In this document: positions 4,480 to 27,698 of the stretch, in pieces
Numbering within the stretch: position 1 is the stretch's first letter
Layout of the letters: the number at the start of each line of letters is the position of its first letter
From: an uncultured Clostridia bacterium
GTDB lineage: Bacteria > Bacillota > Clostridia > TANB77 > CAG-508
NCBI GenBank assembly: GCA_947629555.1
Contig: CANRED010000005.1
Span: forward strand, 569-64,568
Length of the DNA stretch: 64,000 bases
Direction of reading: 5' to 3'
The notes under the pieces: generated by a model
Database searches by the model: none
The model's input: the letters and a program-made list of their open reading frames with translations, nothing else
What the model was told of the DNA's origin: nothing
Translations under genes and position numbers: made by a program

Positions 4480-4570
4480 TGTAGGGAACGACGCCCTCGT
4501 CGTTCCGTTGCTCCAAAGATTCTTGCCTCCCTTACTTAAGGGAGGTGGCGCCGAAGGCGACGGAGGGTTC
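4480..4570 (+). repeat. GC-rich composite island of stacked hairpins (variant of the TGTAGGG-hairpin family)
   Basis: TGTAGGGAACGACG-CCCT-CGTCGTTCC at 4480-4506 has a 9-bp stem. CCTCCCTTA-CT-TAAGGGAGG at about 4528-4547 also has a 9-bp stem. It is followed by GGCGCCGAAGGCGACGGAGGG. The GC content is far above the flanking sequence. Confidence 0.6.
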
Positions 4571-4626
4571 TATAAAAACCAAAGGAGAAATGTAAAATGC
4601 AAAACGCTGTAATCCTTGCAACTGTA

Positions 4627-4654
4627 CACACACACACACACACACACACACACA
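4627..4654 (+). repeat. (CA)14 dinucleotide microsatellite
   Basis: This is a perfect CACACA... tract of 28 nt read directly from the sequence. It lies inside a 20-codon mini-ORF (4597-4659, MQNAVILATVHTHTHTHTHN) that has an AGGAG RBS. Confidence 0.95.
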
Positions 4655-4687
4655 ATTAATTTAATAAAAATAAATATAAAACATAGA

Positions 4688-4745
4688 AACCACACAAAAT
4701 TCTATGTGTATTTTTAGTACACGTAAAATTTTGTGTGGTTTTTTG
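4688..4745 (+). terminator. Long hairpin plus T-run (intrinsic-terminator-like) between the mini-ORF and the surface-protein genes
   Basis: AACCACACAAAATT (4688-4701) pairs with AATTTTGTGTGGTT (4727-4740) as a 14-bp stem, followed by TTTTTTG. Confidence 0.55.
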
Positions 4746-4750
4746 TAATC

Positions 4751-4776
4751 TGTAGGGGTTGCATGGTATGCAACCC
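4751..4776 (+). repeat. TGTAGGGG-hairpin mini-repeat copy
   Basis: TGTAG-GGGTTGCAT-GGT-ATGCAACCC. The stem differs from other copies by a compensatory C>T / G>A pair. Confidence 0.75.
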
Positions 4777-4820
4777 GCTACTTCAACAAAATTACTTAAA
4801 ATTCAAAGGAGGAAAAATTT

Positions 4821-5559
4821 ATGAACAAAATTAAAACAAAACTAACATTAATGGTGGTAATAATATTTGCAATATTAACACTACTATCAACAACAACACA
4901 TGCAGTACTTCAAACAACTCGGAAGAGATAATTCTAAATACGATTATTCGTATAATTGGATAAAAGCAATAAGGCAGATGGAGAAAAAAGATGGGGGAAT
5001 GGCACTAAACGAAACAATAAATGAAGAAACCCTACTTTCAGATACACCTAATAATATAGATGTGCATATGCTTAAAAACACAGAGTATGGTGCAGCAATA
5101 CTTCTTGGAGCATCAGAATACGGAAAACAAGGAGACCCTAAAACAAACAATACAAGTACAACAAGAAGAATGGATAAAGGAAATACAACAGGAAAAGATT
5201 ACCAAGCAAGTACAACAGGAAATGTATCTGGGGTATATGAAATAGGATATTCTAGTATGAATATATCAAAATCTGAATATGAATGGGTAGCAGGAACTTT
5301 AAATGCAAATAAAATATTTCGTTCTTCTACTATAGATTCAAGATATTATGATTTATATGATGATAGTGAAAATTCAGCAAAACCAGGAGATGCAACATTA
5401 GAGACAAATGGATGGCATGGCGGCTCTTCAGGTATGTGGGTTAATTCTCACAGCTCAGGCTTCATACGTGGTGGCGCTGGATCATTTGGCTTTCTCCCTT
5501 GGGATACATCTAATGGTCAATACTGTCGTGCTGGCGTGGTGGTTGGTGAAGGATTTTAA
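4821..5559 (+). CDS. Secreted protein, possibly with an FGE/SUMF1-like C-type-lectin-fold domain; readable only with a +1 shift at CGG 4920-4922
   Basis: ATG 4821 follows RBS AGGAGG and encodes the signal peptide MNKIKTKLTLMVVIIFAILTLLSTTTHA. This frame stops at 4929. The body ORF (track 4900-5559) is in the +1 frame and has no RBS of its own. The merged length is 739 nt, which is 3n+1. Body motifs are SEYEWVAG, GDATLET and GFIRGGAGSFGF..CRAGVV. Confidence 0.7.
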
Positions 5560-25033: not shown

Positions 25034-25758
25034 AATTAATGCCAGACGAAAACGAAGATGTAATTCATTTGTATGAACCATTAGAACTAAACTTAGATGA
25101 AAATTATCAATATATAAAAACTGGAAAGATATTTTCATTTTTTTCTAATTTGTTATATTATGGAGTTGCTTTTCCGGTTTTAACAGTTTTAAATAAAATA
25201 GTATATGATTTAAAAATAGAAGGAAAAGAAAATATAAAAAATTTAACAGCAGGAGCAATAAGTGTATCAAATCATGTATTAGTTTTAGATTGCACAATGG
25301 TAGGATTAGCACTTAAACAAAAGAAAGTGTATTTTACTACGCGAGAAGGTAGTTTTAAAATTCCTTTTATAAGAAAATTAATAAAACTATTAAGAGCAAT
25401 ACCAATTCCTACTAGTTTAAAAAGCAAAGAATATTTTATAAAAGAATTAGATAAAGCAATACAAAATGGCACAATAATACATTTTTATCCTGAAAAAGCC
25501 TTATGGCCTTATTATGAAAAAATAAGAAATTTTAAAGATGGTGCATTTGACTTTGCAATAAGAAATAATGTTCCAATTATTCCAATAGTTGTTACTTTTA
25601 GAGATCCAATAGGAATAAGGAAATTATTTAAGAAGAAAAAAGATGTTACAGTAAAAATATTAGAGCCAATAAAGTATACAGATGAACGAGCTAGCAAAAA
25701 AGAATGCGTAAAGCAATTAAAAGAACAAGTTTATCAAGTTATGAAAAACAATATGTAA
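25003..25758 (+). CDS. 1-acyl-sn-glycerol-3-phosphate acyltransferase family (PlsC-like)
   Basis: 251 aa with the HX4D motif NHVLVLD and an FPE-type block (IHFYPEKALW). Its start overlaps the end of the GT gene. Confidence 0.75.
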   Translation: MEKCFEEASIELMPDENEDVIHLYEPLELNLDENYQYIKTGKIFSFFSNLLYYGVAFPVLTVLNKIVYDLKIEGKENIKNLTAGAISVSNHVLVLDCTMVGLALKQKKVYFTTREGSFKIPFIRKLIKLLRAIPIPTSLKSKEYFIKELDKAIQNGTIIHFYPEKALWPYYEKIRNFKDGAFDFAIRNNVPIIPIVVTFRDPIGIRKLFKKKKDVTVKILEPIKYTDERASKKECVKQLKEQVYQVMKNNM

Positions 25759-25781
25759 AATATTGATAGGAGTGATGATAT

Positions 25782-26087
25782 ATGGATATAAAAGTAATAA
25801 CAATATGTGGTAGTATGAGATATTCAAAGGAAATGATAAAAATAGCTGAAGAATTAGAATTGAAAAAAGGTTATGCCGTTATTCAATGTGTCTATAATTT
25901 AGACGGTTTAAAGTACGAAGGATTAGATGCAAATATTCTAGATAAAATACATAAAAAGAAAATTGACATTAGTGATGCTATTTATGTTGTTAATATAGAT
26001 GGATATATTGGAAATGCAACTAAAAATGAAATTGAATATGCAATAAATAAAGGAAAAGAAGTAATATACCATGAAGAAATAAATTAA
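25782..26087 (+). CDS. Small Rossmann-like protein, possibly nucleoside 2-deoxyribosyltransferase-like
   Basis: 101 aa. Motifs ICGSMRY and ..GNATKNEIEYA resemble that family. The assignment is weak and from memory. Confidence 0.35.
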   Translation: MDIKVITICGSMRYSKEMIKIAEELELKKGYAVIQCVYNLDGLKYEGLDANILDKIHKKKIDISDAIYVVNIDGYIGNATKNEIEYAINKGKEVIYHEEIN

Positions 26088-26118
26088 TAATAGTATTTTA
26101 TAAAGGAGTCAAATTTAT

Positions 26119-27012
26119 ATGGAATTAGTTCAAGTTGGAGAAAAAACTTATTATATAAAAAATCCTACAAACATAGGAATATACAAGATTGATGATAAAA
26201 ATATATATTTAATTGATACCGGAAACGATAAAGATGCAGGTAAAAAAATATTAAAAATTGTTGATGAGCAGGGATGGAATGTTAAAGGGATAATAACAAC
26301 ACATTCCAACGCAGACCATATTGGTGGAAATAAAGTAATTCAAGATAGGACTAATTGTACAATACTTGCTAATAATATAGAGAAAAGTATTACAGAAAAT
26401 CCTATTTTAGAGCCATCATTTTTATATGGTGGATATCCTTTTAAAGATATTAGAAATAAATTTTTACTAGCAAAAGAATCTACTGCAATTCAAATAGAAA
26501 ATAATCTTCCAGAAGGACTTGAGTATTTTCCTGTAAAAGGACACTTTTTTGATATGATAGGAATAAAAACAAGTGATGATGTTTATTTTTTAGCAGATTC
26601 CTTATTTAGTGAAGAAACAATCACAAAATATCATTTGTTTTTTATCTATGATGTTAAAGAATATCTAAACACTTTAGATTTTTTAACTACTTTAAATGGT
26701 AAATTATTTATTCCATCACATTGTGAAGCAACAAATAATATAGCTTCATTAATAGAGCTTAACAGGAATAAAATTGAAGAAATTACCAATAAAATTTATG
26801 CAGCTTGTAAAGAAGAAAAAACTTTTGAAGAAATTTTAAAACATATATTTGACGAATATAATTTAGAGATGAATCCTAATCAATATGTATTAATTGGAAG
26901 TACAATAAAATCATATTTATCTTATTTGTATGACGAAAACAAAATATGCTATGAATTTAAAGATAACAAAATGTTATGGAAGCAAAAAAAGGAGGTAAAG
27001 TTTGAAAAATAA
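26119..27012 (+). CDS. MBL-fold metallo-hydrolase
   Basis: 297 aa with the THSNADHIGG (HxHxDH) motif. Confidence 0.8.
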   Translation: MELVQVGEKTYYIKNPTNIGIYKIDDKNIYLIDTGNDKDAGKKILKIVDEQGWNVKGIITTHSNADHIGGNKVIQDRTNCTILANNIEKSITENPILEPSFLYGGYPFKDIRNKFLLAKESTAIQIENNLPEGLEYFPVKGHFFDMIGIKTSDDVYFLADSLFSEETITKYHLFFIYDVKEYLNTLDFLTTLNGKLFIPSHCEATNNIASLIELNRNKIEEITNKIYAACKEEKTFEEILKHIFDEYNLEMNPNQYVLIGSTIKSYLSYLYDENKICYEFKDNKMLWKQKKEVKFEK

Positions 27013-27652
27013 AATTTTATTATTTCTCATACCAATTATACTCATATTTATTTTAATAATTTTATATTTGTTTAACATTATTCCTCATAGATATTATACA
27101 AATAAAGACTTCAATATTGAAACATACATAAGTAGTATAGATAAAGATAATGATGGAATAGATGATCAAACTGATATATTAGTTAGCGTAAGGAAATATT
27201 TAGAAAGTAAACCCAAATATAAAAGTAAATATTATGCAACAGGTTATCCTGATGATGAGTACGGAGTTTGTACAGATGTCGTCGCATTTGGACTAAAGAA
27301 TGCGGGATATGATTTAATGCAATTAGTAAATGAAGATATTATTAATAATAAAGAAAAATATAATATCGAAGTAATAGATAAAAATATTGATTTTCGCAGA
27401 GTAGGAAATTTAGACATATATTTTAAAAATAATACTATTTCATTAACGACAGACTTATCTAAAATAGAAGAATGGCAAGGTGGAGATATTGTTGTATTTA
27501 AAGGACATATAGGAATAATATCAGATAAAAGAAATAGAAAAGGCATTCCGTTTTTAATACATCATGCAAATCCAATGCAAATTAATTATGAGGAAGATGT
27601 ATTAGAATTATATAGTAATGATTCTATAATTGGTCATTATAGAATTAGTTAA
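27002..27652 (+). CDS. DUF1287-family protein with N-terminal TM anchor
   Basis: 216 aa with a TTG start. It has GVCTDVVAFGLKNAGYDL and GHIGIISDK motifs. Confidence 0.65.
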   Translation: MKNKILLFLIPIILIFILIILYLFNIIPHRYYTNKDFNIETYISSIDKDNDGIDDQTDILVSVRKYLESKPKYKSKYYATGYPDDEYGVCTDVVAFGLKNAGYDLMQLVNEDIINNKEKYNIEVIDKNIDFRRVGNLDIYFKNNTISLTTDLSKIEEWQGGDIVVFKGHIGIISDKRNRKGIPFLIHHANPMQINYEEDVLELYSNDSIIGHYRIS

Positions 27653-27673
27653 AACGAAAAGTGAATTGCAAAA

Positions 27674-27698
27674 TGTAGGGGTCGCATGGTATGCGACC
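27674..27698 (+). repeat. TGTAGGGG-hairpin mini-repeat copy
   Basis: TGTAG-GGGTCGCAT-GGT-ATGCGACC followed by T-rich sequence, downstream of the DUF1287 gene. Confidence 0.75.

Follow-up and report, generated by a model that had tools for sequence, protein, structure and literature searches.

We analyzed a 64-kb stretch of DNA (hereafter the window, read on its forward strand) from a Clostridia bacterium of about 26% GC. Against a background of 25-30% GC, seven short GC-rich hairpins with a shared 5' tag had been noticed here, and an original prediction made from the letters alone compared them to repetitive extragenic palindromic (REP) elements, or to the bacterial interspersed mosaic elements (BIMEs) built from them, that are mobilized by REP-associated tyrosine transposases (RAYTs). 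The seven copies are very probably GTAG-headed REP elements, which are non-autonomous DNA elements of 25-29 nucleotides that act as folded single-stranded hairpins. The connection to REPs and RAYTs is upheld by the head sequence, by covariation within the stem and by RAYT genes in related genomes that are bracketed by such elements. In contrast, the suggested BIME arrangement, or the related REP doublets forming hairpins (REPINs), is not seen, as all copies in the window are singletons.

The seven copies do occur in a single orientation, as predicted. The heptamer TGTAGGG is found seven times in the 64 kb, exclusively on the plus strand (mean of 2.3 in shuffled sequences), and a GC-rich inverted repeat comes after every one of them. 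Its positions are the start coordinates given in Table 1, by which we name the copies. The hexamer GGGTYG is confined to these elements within the window. A scan for the head GT[AG]G, separated by 0-2 nucleotides from a perfect stem of at least 8 base pairs and at least 50% GC, identified five copies on the plus strand and one echo on the minus strand. Windows simulated with a first-order Markov model are expected to give only 0.015 such hits each (at most 1 in 200 simulations), which places the count in the window far above chance. A covariance model built from 33 observed REP variants and run with filters off on both strands recovered only the seven sites and their palindromic opposite-strand echoes, and no further copies. 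REP families are expected to comprise many dispersed and mostly extragenic copies. In the window, which is the only sequence scanned in this way, there are seven such copies, six of which are intergenic, and all are confined to 23 kb.

Table 1. Predicted REP copies in the window and the structured stretch adjoining the first of them. Scores are in bits, and folding is given as kcal/mol or as a z score.
Feature	Position	Strand	Composition	Score and folding
REP copy 1, subfamily C	4480..4506	+	T-GTAG + GGAACGACG / CCCT / CGTCGTTCC	28.1 bits; -10.8 kcal/mol; z -5.35
REP copy 2, subfamily A	4751..4781	+	T-GTAG + GGGTTGCAT / GGT / ATGCAACCC	34.8 bits on +, 24.7 on -; z -5.36
REP copy 3, subfamily B	6019..6045	+	T-GTAG + GGGTCG-gc-GTC...GAC-CGACCC, imperfect palindrome	29.7 bits; z -1.8
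REP copy 4, subfamily A	12790..12815	+	T-GTAG + GGGTCGCAT / GAT / ATGCGACCC	35.3 bits; z -5.47
REP copy 5, subfamily A variant	16061..16088	+	T-GTAG + GGGTCGCTT / AGGTC / AAGCGACCC	30.8 bits; z -5.32
REP copy 6, long form of subfamily B	16160..16228	+	arms TGTAGGGGTCGGCGTCC ... GACGACCC, 44-nt insert between	head only 8.6 bits; z -0.66
REP copy 7, subfamily A	27674..27699	+	T-GTAG + (G)GGTCGCAT / GGT / ATGCGACC(T)	31.1 bits; z -5.54
GC-rich structured stretch	4507..4575	+	directly 3' of copy 4480; hairpin CCTCCCTT/AAGGGAGG and others	

Each copy is composed of T-GTAG, a stem starting with GG(G) and a loop of 3-5 nucleotides. REPs are defined by a GTAG sequence at the foot of a GC-rich hairpin (PMC2817692, PMC3733652, PMC6006769), with GT[AG]G located 0-2 nucleotides 5' of the foot, and in all seven copies GTAG stands directly at the foot. 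The preceding base is T in every copy, as part of CT in two copies and of AT in five. The stems belong to three subfamilies, A, B and C (Table 1). A REP hairpin is a short GC-rich palindrome able to fold as a single strand, 20-40 nucleotides overall, with a basal stem of 7-20 base pairs, a loop of 2-5 nucleotides and, optionally, a bulge and second stem. Five copies fold well as single-stranded DNA (-8.8 to -11.6 kcal/mol, z -5.3 to -5.5). The two subfamily B copies share the foot GGGTCG/CGACCC followed by a short inner helix, and these bulged structures fold weakly (z -1.8 and -0.7). For copy 6019, the predicted fold has a 6-base-pair foot, one unpaired base and two inner pairs. A perfect hairpin of 9-11 base pairs had been claimed for the whole set, and this description fits copies 4480, 4751, 12790 and 16061, each with 9 base pairs, but not copies 27674, 6019 and 16160. 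Copy 27674 has 8 base pairs plus a G-T closing pair, and its stem is otherwise the same as that of copy 12790.

Where the stems differ, they do so on both arms, as had been noted, and GGGTCGCAT/ATGCGACCC, GGGTTGCAT/ATGCAACCC and GGGTCGCTT/AAGCGACCC serve as examples. The compensated changes within the window are C-G to T-A and A-T to T-A, giving the sort of subfamilies with matched stem substitutions that characterize REPs. The pattern TGTAGGGGTYGCNTN{3,5}ANGCRACC was also searched over one genome per species from 185,000 species, which yielded at least 105 loci in other genomes; the genome of the window was not among the multi-copy hosts listed. Two stem pairs and the closing base were left free to mismatch in the pattern, and these positions therefore provide an unbiased test for covariation. 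Among the matches listed, the Y-R pair is complementary in 120 of 120 (96 C-G and 24 T-A) and the N-N pair in 117 of 120, with four pair types represented, and the closing base is C in 114 of 120, though the pattern left this base free. For 34 distinct 26-mers, 99% of cells pair, compared to 19-45% in slid registers, and 21 cells are changed on both sides versus 6.0 in shuffles. A G-T closing pair is tolerated on the GTAG strand, both in copy 27674 and in 3 of the 34 unique variants. The predicted selection for a hairpin together with a single-stranded 5' tag therefore agrees with our findings, wherein the hairpin covaries and the tag is the canonical GTAG head of REPs.

The multi-copy hosts among the matches listed include many uncultured low-GC Clostridia, Anaerosolibacter, Oscillospiraceae and other Bacillota, as well as several metagenome-assembled genomes (MAGs) from Nitrospinota. 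Unclassified bacterial MAGs of about 61% GC share repeat flanks with the Nitrospinota MAGs, and one of these carries at least 26 copies in the loci listed. A gammaproteobacterial MAG has nine loci among the matches listed. Subfamilies B and C are likewise present in other Clostridia (subfamily B in loci L011, L103 and L133), and the 29 nucleotides of copy 4480 are found unchanged in a Eubacteriales MAG (L033). In other genomes, the core matched by the pattern is also found as inverted doublets, arranged as TGTAGGGG-hairpin, spacer and hairpin-CCCCTACA (L010, L035, L073, L055, L087 and L093), and one locus (L039) is a dense REP cluster with alternating orientations. There is no match to the pattern in 2.9 million viral contigs or in PLSDB plasmids, which fits a chromosomal, domesticated system. 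Two low-GC MAGs have DNA similarity to the window, each at about 69-83% identity: CANRNW01, a rabbit-gut MAG, across 4.6-9.5 kb, and CAOKNG01 across the region of an OLE RNA (see below). Locus L102 shares 37 nucleotides with copy 12790, flank included, but was rejected as its ortholog because it lies between unrelated genes.

The association with RAYT genes is evident from twelve RAYT loci in other genomes, eight of them in low-GC Clostridia, that are bracketed by or contain inverted GTAG-REPs; 11 are named here. One of these, in the relative CAOKNG01 (L062), codes for a 164-amino-acid protein with HuH (NHIHFIL) and Y (YEHIIR) motifs. The REP TGTAGGGGCGAGCATTGCTCGTCC is located in the 5' part of its coding region (about 7190-7215), where it encodes PCRGEHCSSD without breaking the frame, and an inverted copy resides just past the stop codon. 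Homologues of this protein (560 matches) led to seven further low-GC Clostridia loci with the same bracketing arrangement (L115, L118, L120, L123, L124, L131 and L133). Two loci from Anaerosolibacter (L101 and L083) each carry an inverted pair of subfamily A REPs. In L101 (4074-4227), the pair lies in frame inside the RAYT open reading frame (ORF), between its HuH motif and its Y motif, and leaves the frame unbroken, whereas for L083 the REP and RAYT positions alone were checked. REPs inside a RAYT ORF have been reported as an oddity of TnpA-Y1 subclass 2.4 (PMC6006769). In locus L039, a RAYT-like protein match falls inside the REP cluster.

The proteins of L062 and L101, the two that were scanned, have as their best family NCBIfam NF047646, REP-associated tyrosine transposase, with E values of 3e-15 and 2e-18 that do not reach the equivalog cutoff. 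Pfam Y1_Tnp is an additional match for the protein of L101, and the sole match in the PDB is E. coli TnpA-REP (4ER8). The search for a RAYT or Y1 transposase that the original prediction proposed was thus productive in other genomes carrying these REPs but not in the window. RAYT genes of low-GC Clostridia (L114-L117, L120-L124, L131 and L133) occupy varied neighborhoods, including positions beside maf, after minC, between polA/SLT and an epimerase gene, and upstream of rpoB. Their different neighborhoods, with several beside housekeeping genes, fit domesticated rather than insertion sequence (IS)-like behavior.

A mechanism for the spread of such elements has been modeled on TnpA-REP from E. 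coli, Stenotrophomonas and Marinomonas (PMC8266576, PMC2817692, PMC6006769). By analogy, the RAYT, an HuH/Y1 enzyme related to the TnpA of IS200/IS605, would bind only the folded GTAG (top) strand, reading the 5' GTAG and unpaired bases of the loop or a bulge. The enzyme might then cut next to the element, at a dinucleotide that is either CT or CA, and rejoin the DNA, and copies might be made or moved while the DNA is single-stranded at the replication fork. Strand-specific binding and cleavage are known for the enzymes of E. coli, S. maltophilia and Marinomonas (PMC8266576). The T preceding GTAG in our copies is placed where RAYT cleavage sites lie, but we treat this as only a resemblance. 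We infer the presence of a RAYT in the organism of the window, its role in producing the seven copies, and whatever influence the hairpins may have on mRNA.

The gene identities on which the positional argument depends were confirmed for lepA, nrdD, nrdG, the gene for a PepSY protein, and genes for DUF308 and DUF1287 proteins, including all four that had been called earlier (lepA, nrdD, PepSY and DUF1287). Copies 12790, 16061 and 27674 start 31, 29 and 22 nucleotides after the stop codons of nrdD, PepSY and DUF1287, respectively. The reported location just after stop codons is therefore correct for these three copies, but not for copy 4480, which is separated from the lepA stop by 108 nucleotides. 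Copy 12790 separates nrdD, which stops at 12759, from nrdG, which starts at 12857. Copy 4751 ends 40 nucleotides before an ATG at 4821, and copy 16160 ends 94 nucleotides before the called DUF308 start. The genes flanking the copies are all on the plus strand, and given this placement all seven copies would also be transcribed. The part of the window with minus-strand genes (about 42-64 kb) carries no copies. GC and AT skews switch sign with gene strand near 2000 and 42000, being positive from 2 to 42 kb and negative beyond, and all REPs reside in the positive part. The plus strand is G-rich across the REP-bearing region, and we use the G-rich strand as a proxy for the leading strand, although coding-strand bias yields the same signal.

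Orientation was also counted with crude ORF calls for REPs located between co-directional genes in the window and in 12 low-GC genomes. GTAG reads in the sense direction in 20 cases and in the antisense direction in three (87% sense; 14 versus 3 without the window), and many copies lie 3-32 nucleotides behind the upstream stop codon. Because a perfect palindrome folds either way round, this bias points to a strand-specific process. Most genes in Clostridia run with replication, which usually makes their sense strand the template for lagging-strand synthesis, and it is on this template that enzymes of the IS200/IS605 type act. The sense bias would thus fit insertion into the lagging-strand template, an effect that in these data is not separable from that of transcription.

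Comparison with the rabbit-gut relative CANRNW01, whose flanks are about 71-77% identical to the window, reveals both retention and turnover. Copy 4751 is kept at the orthologous site (L066/L015) with a single loop change, and the surrounding 5' untranslated region (UTR) is conserved as well. At the site matching copy 4480, the relative instead carries a different GTAG-REP with a GGGCGCA stem, and the coding position matching copy 6019 (L066) has no hairpin and is 12 nucleotides shorter. The contigs of this relative break at copy 4751. Within the species, eight metagenome contigs with 95.7-100% identity to the window all retain copy 12790 without alteration, and spacing is likewise preserved around 16061/16160 and 27674. 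Thus, the copies are fixed in the sampled population, and turnover is visible only between species.

Several observations weigh against the assignment of these copies to REPs. The window includes no inverted pair of the REPIN or BIME type, as all seven copies are on the plus strand and the neighbors 16061 and 16160 are arranged head-to-tail. No RAYT or Y1 transposase homologue is encoded in the 64 kb (tblastn with RAYT/Y1 queries). The organism's own RAYT was also not found among the candidates looked up from the 560 homologues, of which seven were traced to samples other than those of the window (ERZ272490xx-ERZ272496xx, ERR106637xx) and ten were looked up by cluster. Moreover, the REPs that bracket RAYT genes in low-GC Clostridia are of a GGGCG stem type that is absent from the window, and subfamily A is carried only by the Anaerosolibacter RAYTs. 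The strains that are 95.7-100% identical exhibit no presence/absence polymorphism, and hence there is no direct sign of recent mobility. Finally, all seven copies fall inside 23 of the 64 kb, an arrangement with a probability of about 1% under uniform spread by our calculation.

The most serious competing explanation is that the hairpins are primarily RNA elements of the host, which protect mRNA 3' ends or adjust stability within an operon (nrdD versus nrdG), and that any link to RAYTs is historical or absent. We consider this unlikely. In its favor, all seven copies are in the transcribed sense, the excess of sense over antisense copies extends to co-directional gene pairs generally (20 versus 3), and a location shortly after a stop codon is found for three copies in the window (22-31 nucleotides) and for many in relatives (3-30 nucleotides). 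Tolerance of a G-T pair on the GTAG strand, which would be G-U in RNA, the retention of copy 4751 despite its diverged flanks, and the invariance of copy 12790 among strains are also consistent with RNA function, and Di Nocera et al. make the same argument for many REPs (PMC3733652).

However, a palindrome folds in both orientations, so neither the strand bias nor the invariant GTAG is explained by RNA function alone, and a sense fraction of 87% is about what insertion into the lagging-strand template would be expected to give. The same sequences are also present at unrelated loci, in other phyla and on both sides of RAYT genes, and in the window one copy is inside a coding sequence and another is in a 5' leader. 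The hairpins are without a proper U-tract, and only two of the seven are flagged by a lenient scan for terminators. In addition, the 5' UTR that contains copy 4751 is generally conserved, and therefore the conservation of this copy is not specific to the REP. If GTAG-REPs are indeed the correct assignment, a role in mRNA stabilization would be a secondary effect and not the origin of the family.

A broader proposal, which we regard as improbable, is that REPs of low-GC Clostridia are strand-fixed, transcribed singletons used by the host, and further that the core GTAG-GGGTYGCAT-NNN-ATGCRACCC represents one old or widely spread recognition pair. Host-used REPs located from a few to about 30 nucleotides behind stop codons, including the copy between nrdD and nrdG, may be RNA 3'-end or operon-internal stability elements. 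Likewise, the presence of this core in Bacillota, Nitrospinota and a gammaproteobacterial MAG could reflect a single RAYT-REP pair that is either very old or horizontally spread. Such a shared pair, if true, would contradict the usual statement that REPs are species-specific. The sharing of one stem across phyla is suggestive, but we rejected it as proof of horizontal transfer. With a GGG foot and six free positions there are only about 4,000 possible stems, and coincidence is expected when 185,000 species are searched. The RAYTs associated with the shared stem are only about 37% identical, and are no closer to one another than to RAYTs with other stems.

It is very improbable that the copies are ends or fragments of a conventional IS, such as the left-end and right-end hairpins of IS200/IS605, or a miniature inverted-repeat transposable element derived from one. 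IS200/IS605 elements likewise have subterminal hairpins at their ends, each with a guide tetranucleotide on the 5' side, and their closest relatives are RAYTs (PMC6006769, PMC8266576). The 44-nucleotide insert between the arms of copy 16160 might also be viewed in this light. Indeed, IS608 and ISDra2 share with our elements the single-stranded hairpin substrate, the tetranucleotide in the guide position and a strand-specific HuH/Y1 enzyme, and an orientation bias resulting from lagging-strand-template insertion is an expected common feature. However, no tnpA or tnpB gene is found beside any copy in the window (tblastn), and neither hairpins flanking a transposase gene nor full-length IS copies are present there. 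Similarity between copies ends at the unit of about 25 nucleotides, with no structures resembling terminal inverted repeats or target site duplications. The associated proteins fit NF047646 or TnpA-REP 4ER8 better than IS200 TnpA, and the RAYT genes that were fetched adjoin housekeeping genes (polA, rpoB, minC and maf). The elements also have no match in viral contigs, plasmids or Rfam; for the latter, no hit at the copies reached the gathering threshold, and over positions 4000-28500 none with E<=5 overlapped any copy.

Least probable of all is that these are intrinsic terminators or palindromic operators that resemble one another by chance: GC-rich stem-loops between genes, the flagging of sites 12795 and 16066 by the lenient scan and the GGTTTTCT that follows copy 16160 are of the expected kind, but the T tails are poor (GTATTTATAC, ACTTTCTAGT), also at the two flagged sites, one copy is between nrdD and nrdG and one is within a coding sequence, stem positions covary rather than conserve, which argues against sequence-specific recognition of a duplex, and the asymmetric GTAG head is invariant. 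The more convincing terminator-like hairpins in the window are different, having long AT-rich stems and T-rich tails. These are located at convergent gene ends, where the hairpin at 13392-13425 has T-rich tails on both strands and could be read as bidirectional, and that at 9633-9673 has one on the minus strand only.

The GTAG-REP families described previously (Nunvar 2010, PMC2817692; Di Nocera 2013, PMC3733652; Quentin 2018, PMC6006769) match these elements in most respects. They have a common foot of three G-C pairs, form subfamilies with complementary stem substitutions, and lie for the most part between genes, downstream of coding regions, although a copy is occasionally found in frame within a gene. 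'Double foot' forms and long variants with inserts are also known, as are REPs inside the RAYT gene, a feature matched here in related genomes. The REPs of RAYT subclass 2.4 (PMC6006769, Table S1; for example GTAGGGGTTTAACACCGTTAAACCC) have the same layout of GTAG, a 9-base-pair stem starting from GGG, and a 3-nucleotide loop in a total of 25 nucleotides, and long REPs with large internal inserts are listed for this subclass. The conserved 5' tag, the compensated stems, the position after stop codons and the occasional odd copy are therefore published properties of GTAG-REPs (PMC3733652). What differs is the low-GC Clostridia host and a window with singletons on one strand only, although families dominated by singletons are known (families 14, 16 and 24; PMC3733652). 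REPINs and BIMEs of E. coli, Pseudomonas and Xanthomonas are built from the same REP unit, and the core of our family forms inverted doublets elsewhere and an alternating cluster around a RAYT (L039), whereas the only adjacent pair in the window is head-to-tail.

In the REP survey text and tables that we consulted (PMC3733652 and PMC6006769), the stems GGGTYGCAT, GGGTCGgcGTC and GGAACGACG are absent, and no REP family from Firmicutes or Clostridia is listed. RAYT Group 1 has been noted to be 'also found in the Clostridia' (PMC5581495). What is new relative to those surveys is this stem family and the description of REPs in Clostridia.

Individual copies have additional features. Copy 4480 lies between a promoter-like stretch on its upstream side, also conserved in a relative, and a small ORF downstream. 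Directly 3' of this copy is the GC-rich structured stretch of about 70 nucleotides (Table 1), and the region 4470-4585 that includes it folds at -26.5 kcal/mol (z -4.69). This stretch is absent from the matching site of a relative (L015) and has no match in Rfam. It is possibly part of a composite insertion, and its membership in the REP family is uncertain. The small ORF (4597-4660, plus strand) has an ATG at 4597 and a good ribosome-binding site, and continues into a microsatellite, (CA)13, at 4626-4655. Conservation in the rabbit-gut relative (L015, about 150-215, minus strand) extends to the promoter-like region, the REP, the ribosome-binding site, the ATG and the CA run, and the ORF could encode a length-variable leader peptide. 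Copy 4751 has G-CTAC after its stem, and so GTAG can be read on both strands, which is the 'double foot' form.

Copy 6019 is intragenic, in frame and in the sense orientation, and encodes VGVGVPDDP (NNVGVGVPDDPE) within the ORF at 5837-9616. This ORF codes for a repetitive protein of 1259 amino acids, in which three to four long repeats are seen and matches to Ig-like, Y_Y_Y and SdrD_B domains are only faint. In-frame peptide additions have been described for intragenic REPs and for Rickettsia palindromic elements (Di Nocera, PMC3733652). The latter resemble copy 6019 in adding a short peptide to a variable region, but they are 100-150 base pairs in length and not GTAG-headed, and only one of our seven copies is intragenic. 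Two pairs of plus-strand ORFs overlap in different frames (4821-4931 with 4900-5559, and 5617-5868 with 5837-9616), which suggests frameshifts, pseudogenes or mis-assembly.

Copy 16160 is the long form of subfamily B, with a 17-nucleotide left arm and a 10-nucleotide right arm identical to those of copy 6019, and stands 99 nucleotides from copy 16061. No further instance of its 44-nucleotide insert is present, either elsewhere in the window or among the first 105 loci from other genomes. Copies 16061 and 27674 are directly preceded by TATTGCAAAC and ATTGCAAAA, respectively. A shared motif, (T)ATTGCAAA(C/A), is found immediately 5' of TGTAGGG at these sites (16051-16060 and 27664-27673) and likewise 5' of several other low-GC Clostridia REPs (L033, L054 and L015). 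Candidate readings of this motif are an extension of the left end, a target preference and a hexamer of the -35 type. Elsewhere in the window, there is a full-length OLE (ornate large extremophilic) RNA (RF01071) at 62191-62791 on the minus strand (360 bits, E value of 3e-102) that is about 75% identical to its counterpart in MAG CAOKNG01 (L105), and a tRNA scan of the window found none.

To our knowledge, nearly all detailed work on REP/RAYT systems has been done in Proteobacteria. The window and the loci fetched from other genomes show that canonical GTAG-REPs, with several subfamilies of stem, are present in low-GC Clostridia. These bacteria also have conserved REPtrons, in which a RAYT gene is bracketed by inverted REPs and sometimes carries a REP inside its own reading frame. 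There are practical consequences as well, because GC-rich hairpins in AT-rich genomes break assemblies, as observed for the contigs of a relative that end at one. Such hairpins can also be misidentified as terminators or small RNAs, and can add peptides to proteins. Given a complete genome, the strong sense-strand bias would provide a clean means to discriminate between replication-coupled insertion and selection at the level of RNA.

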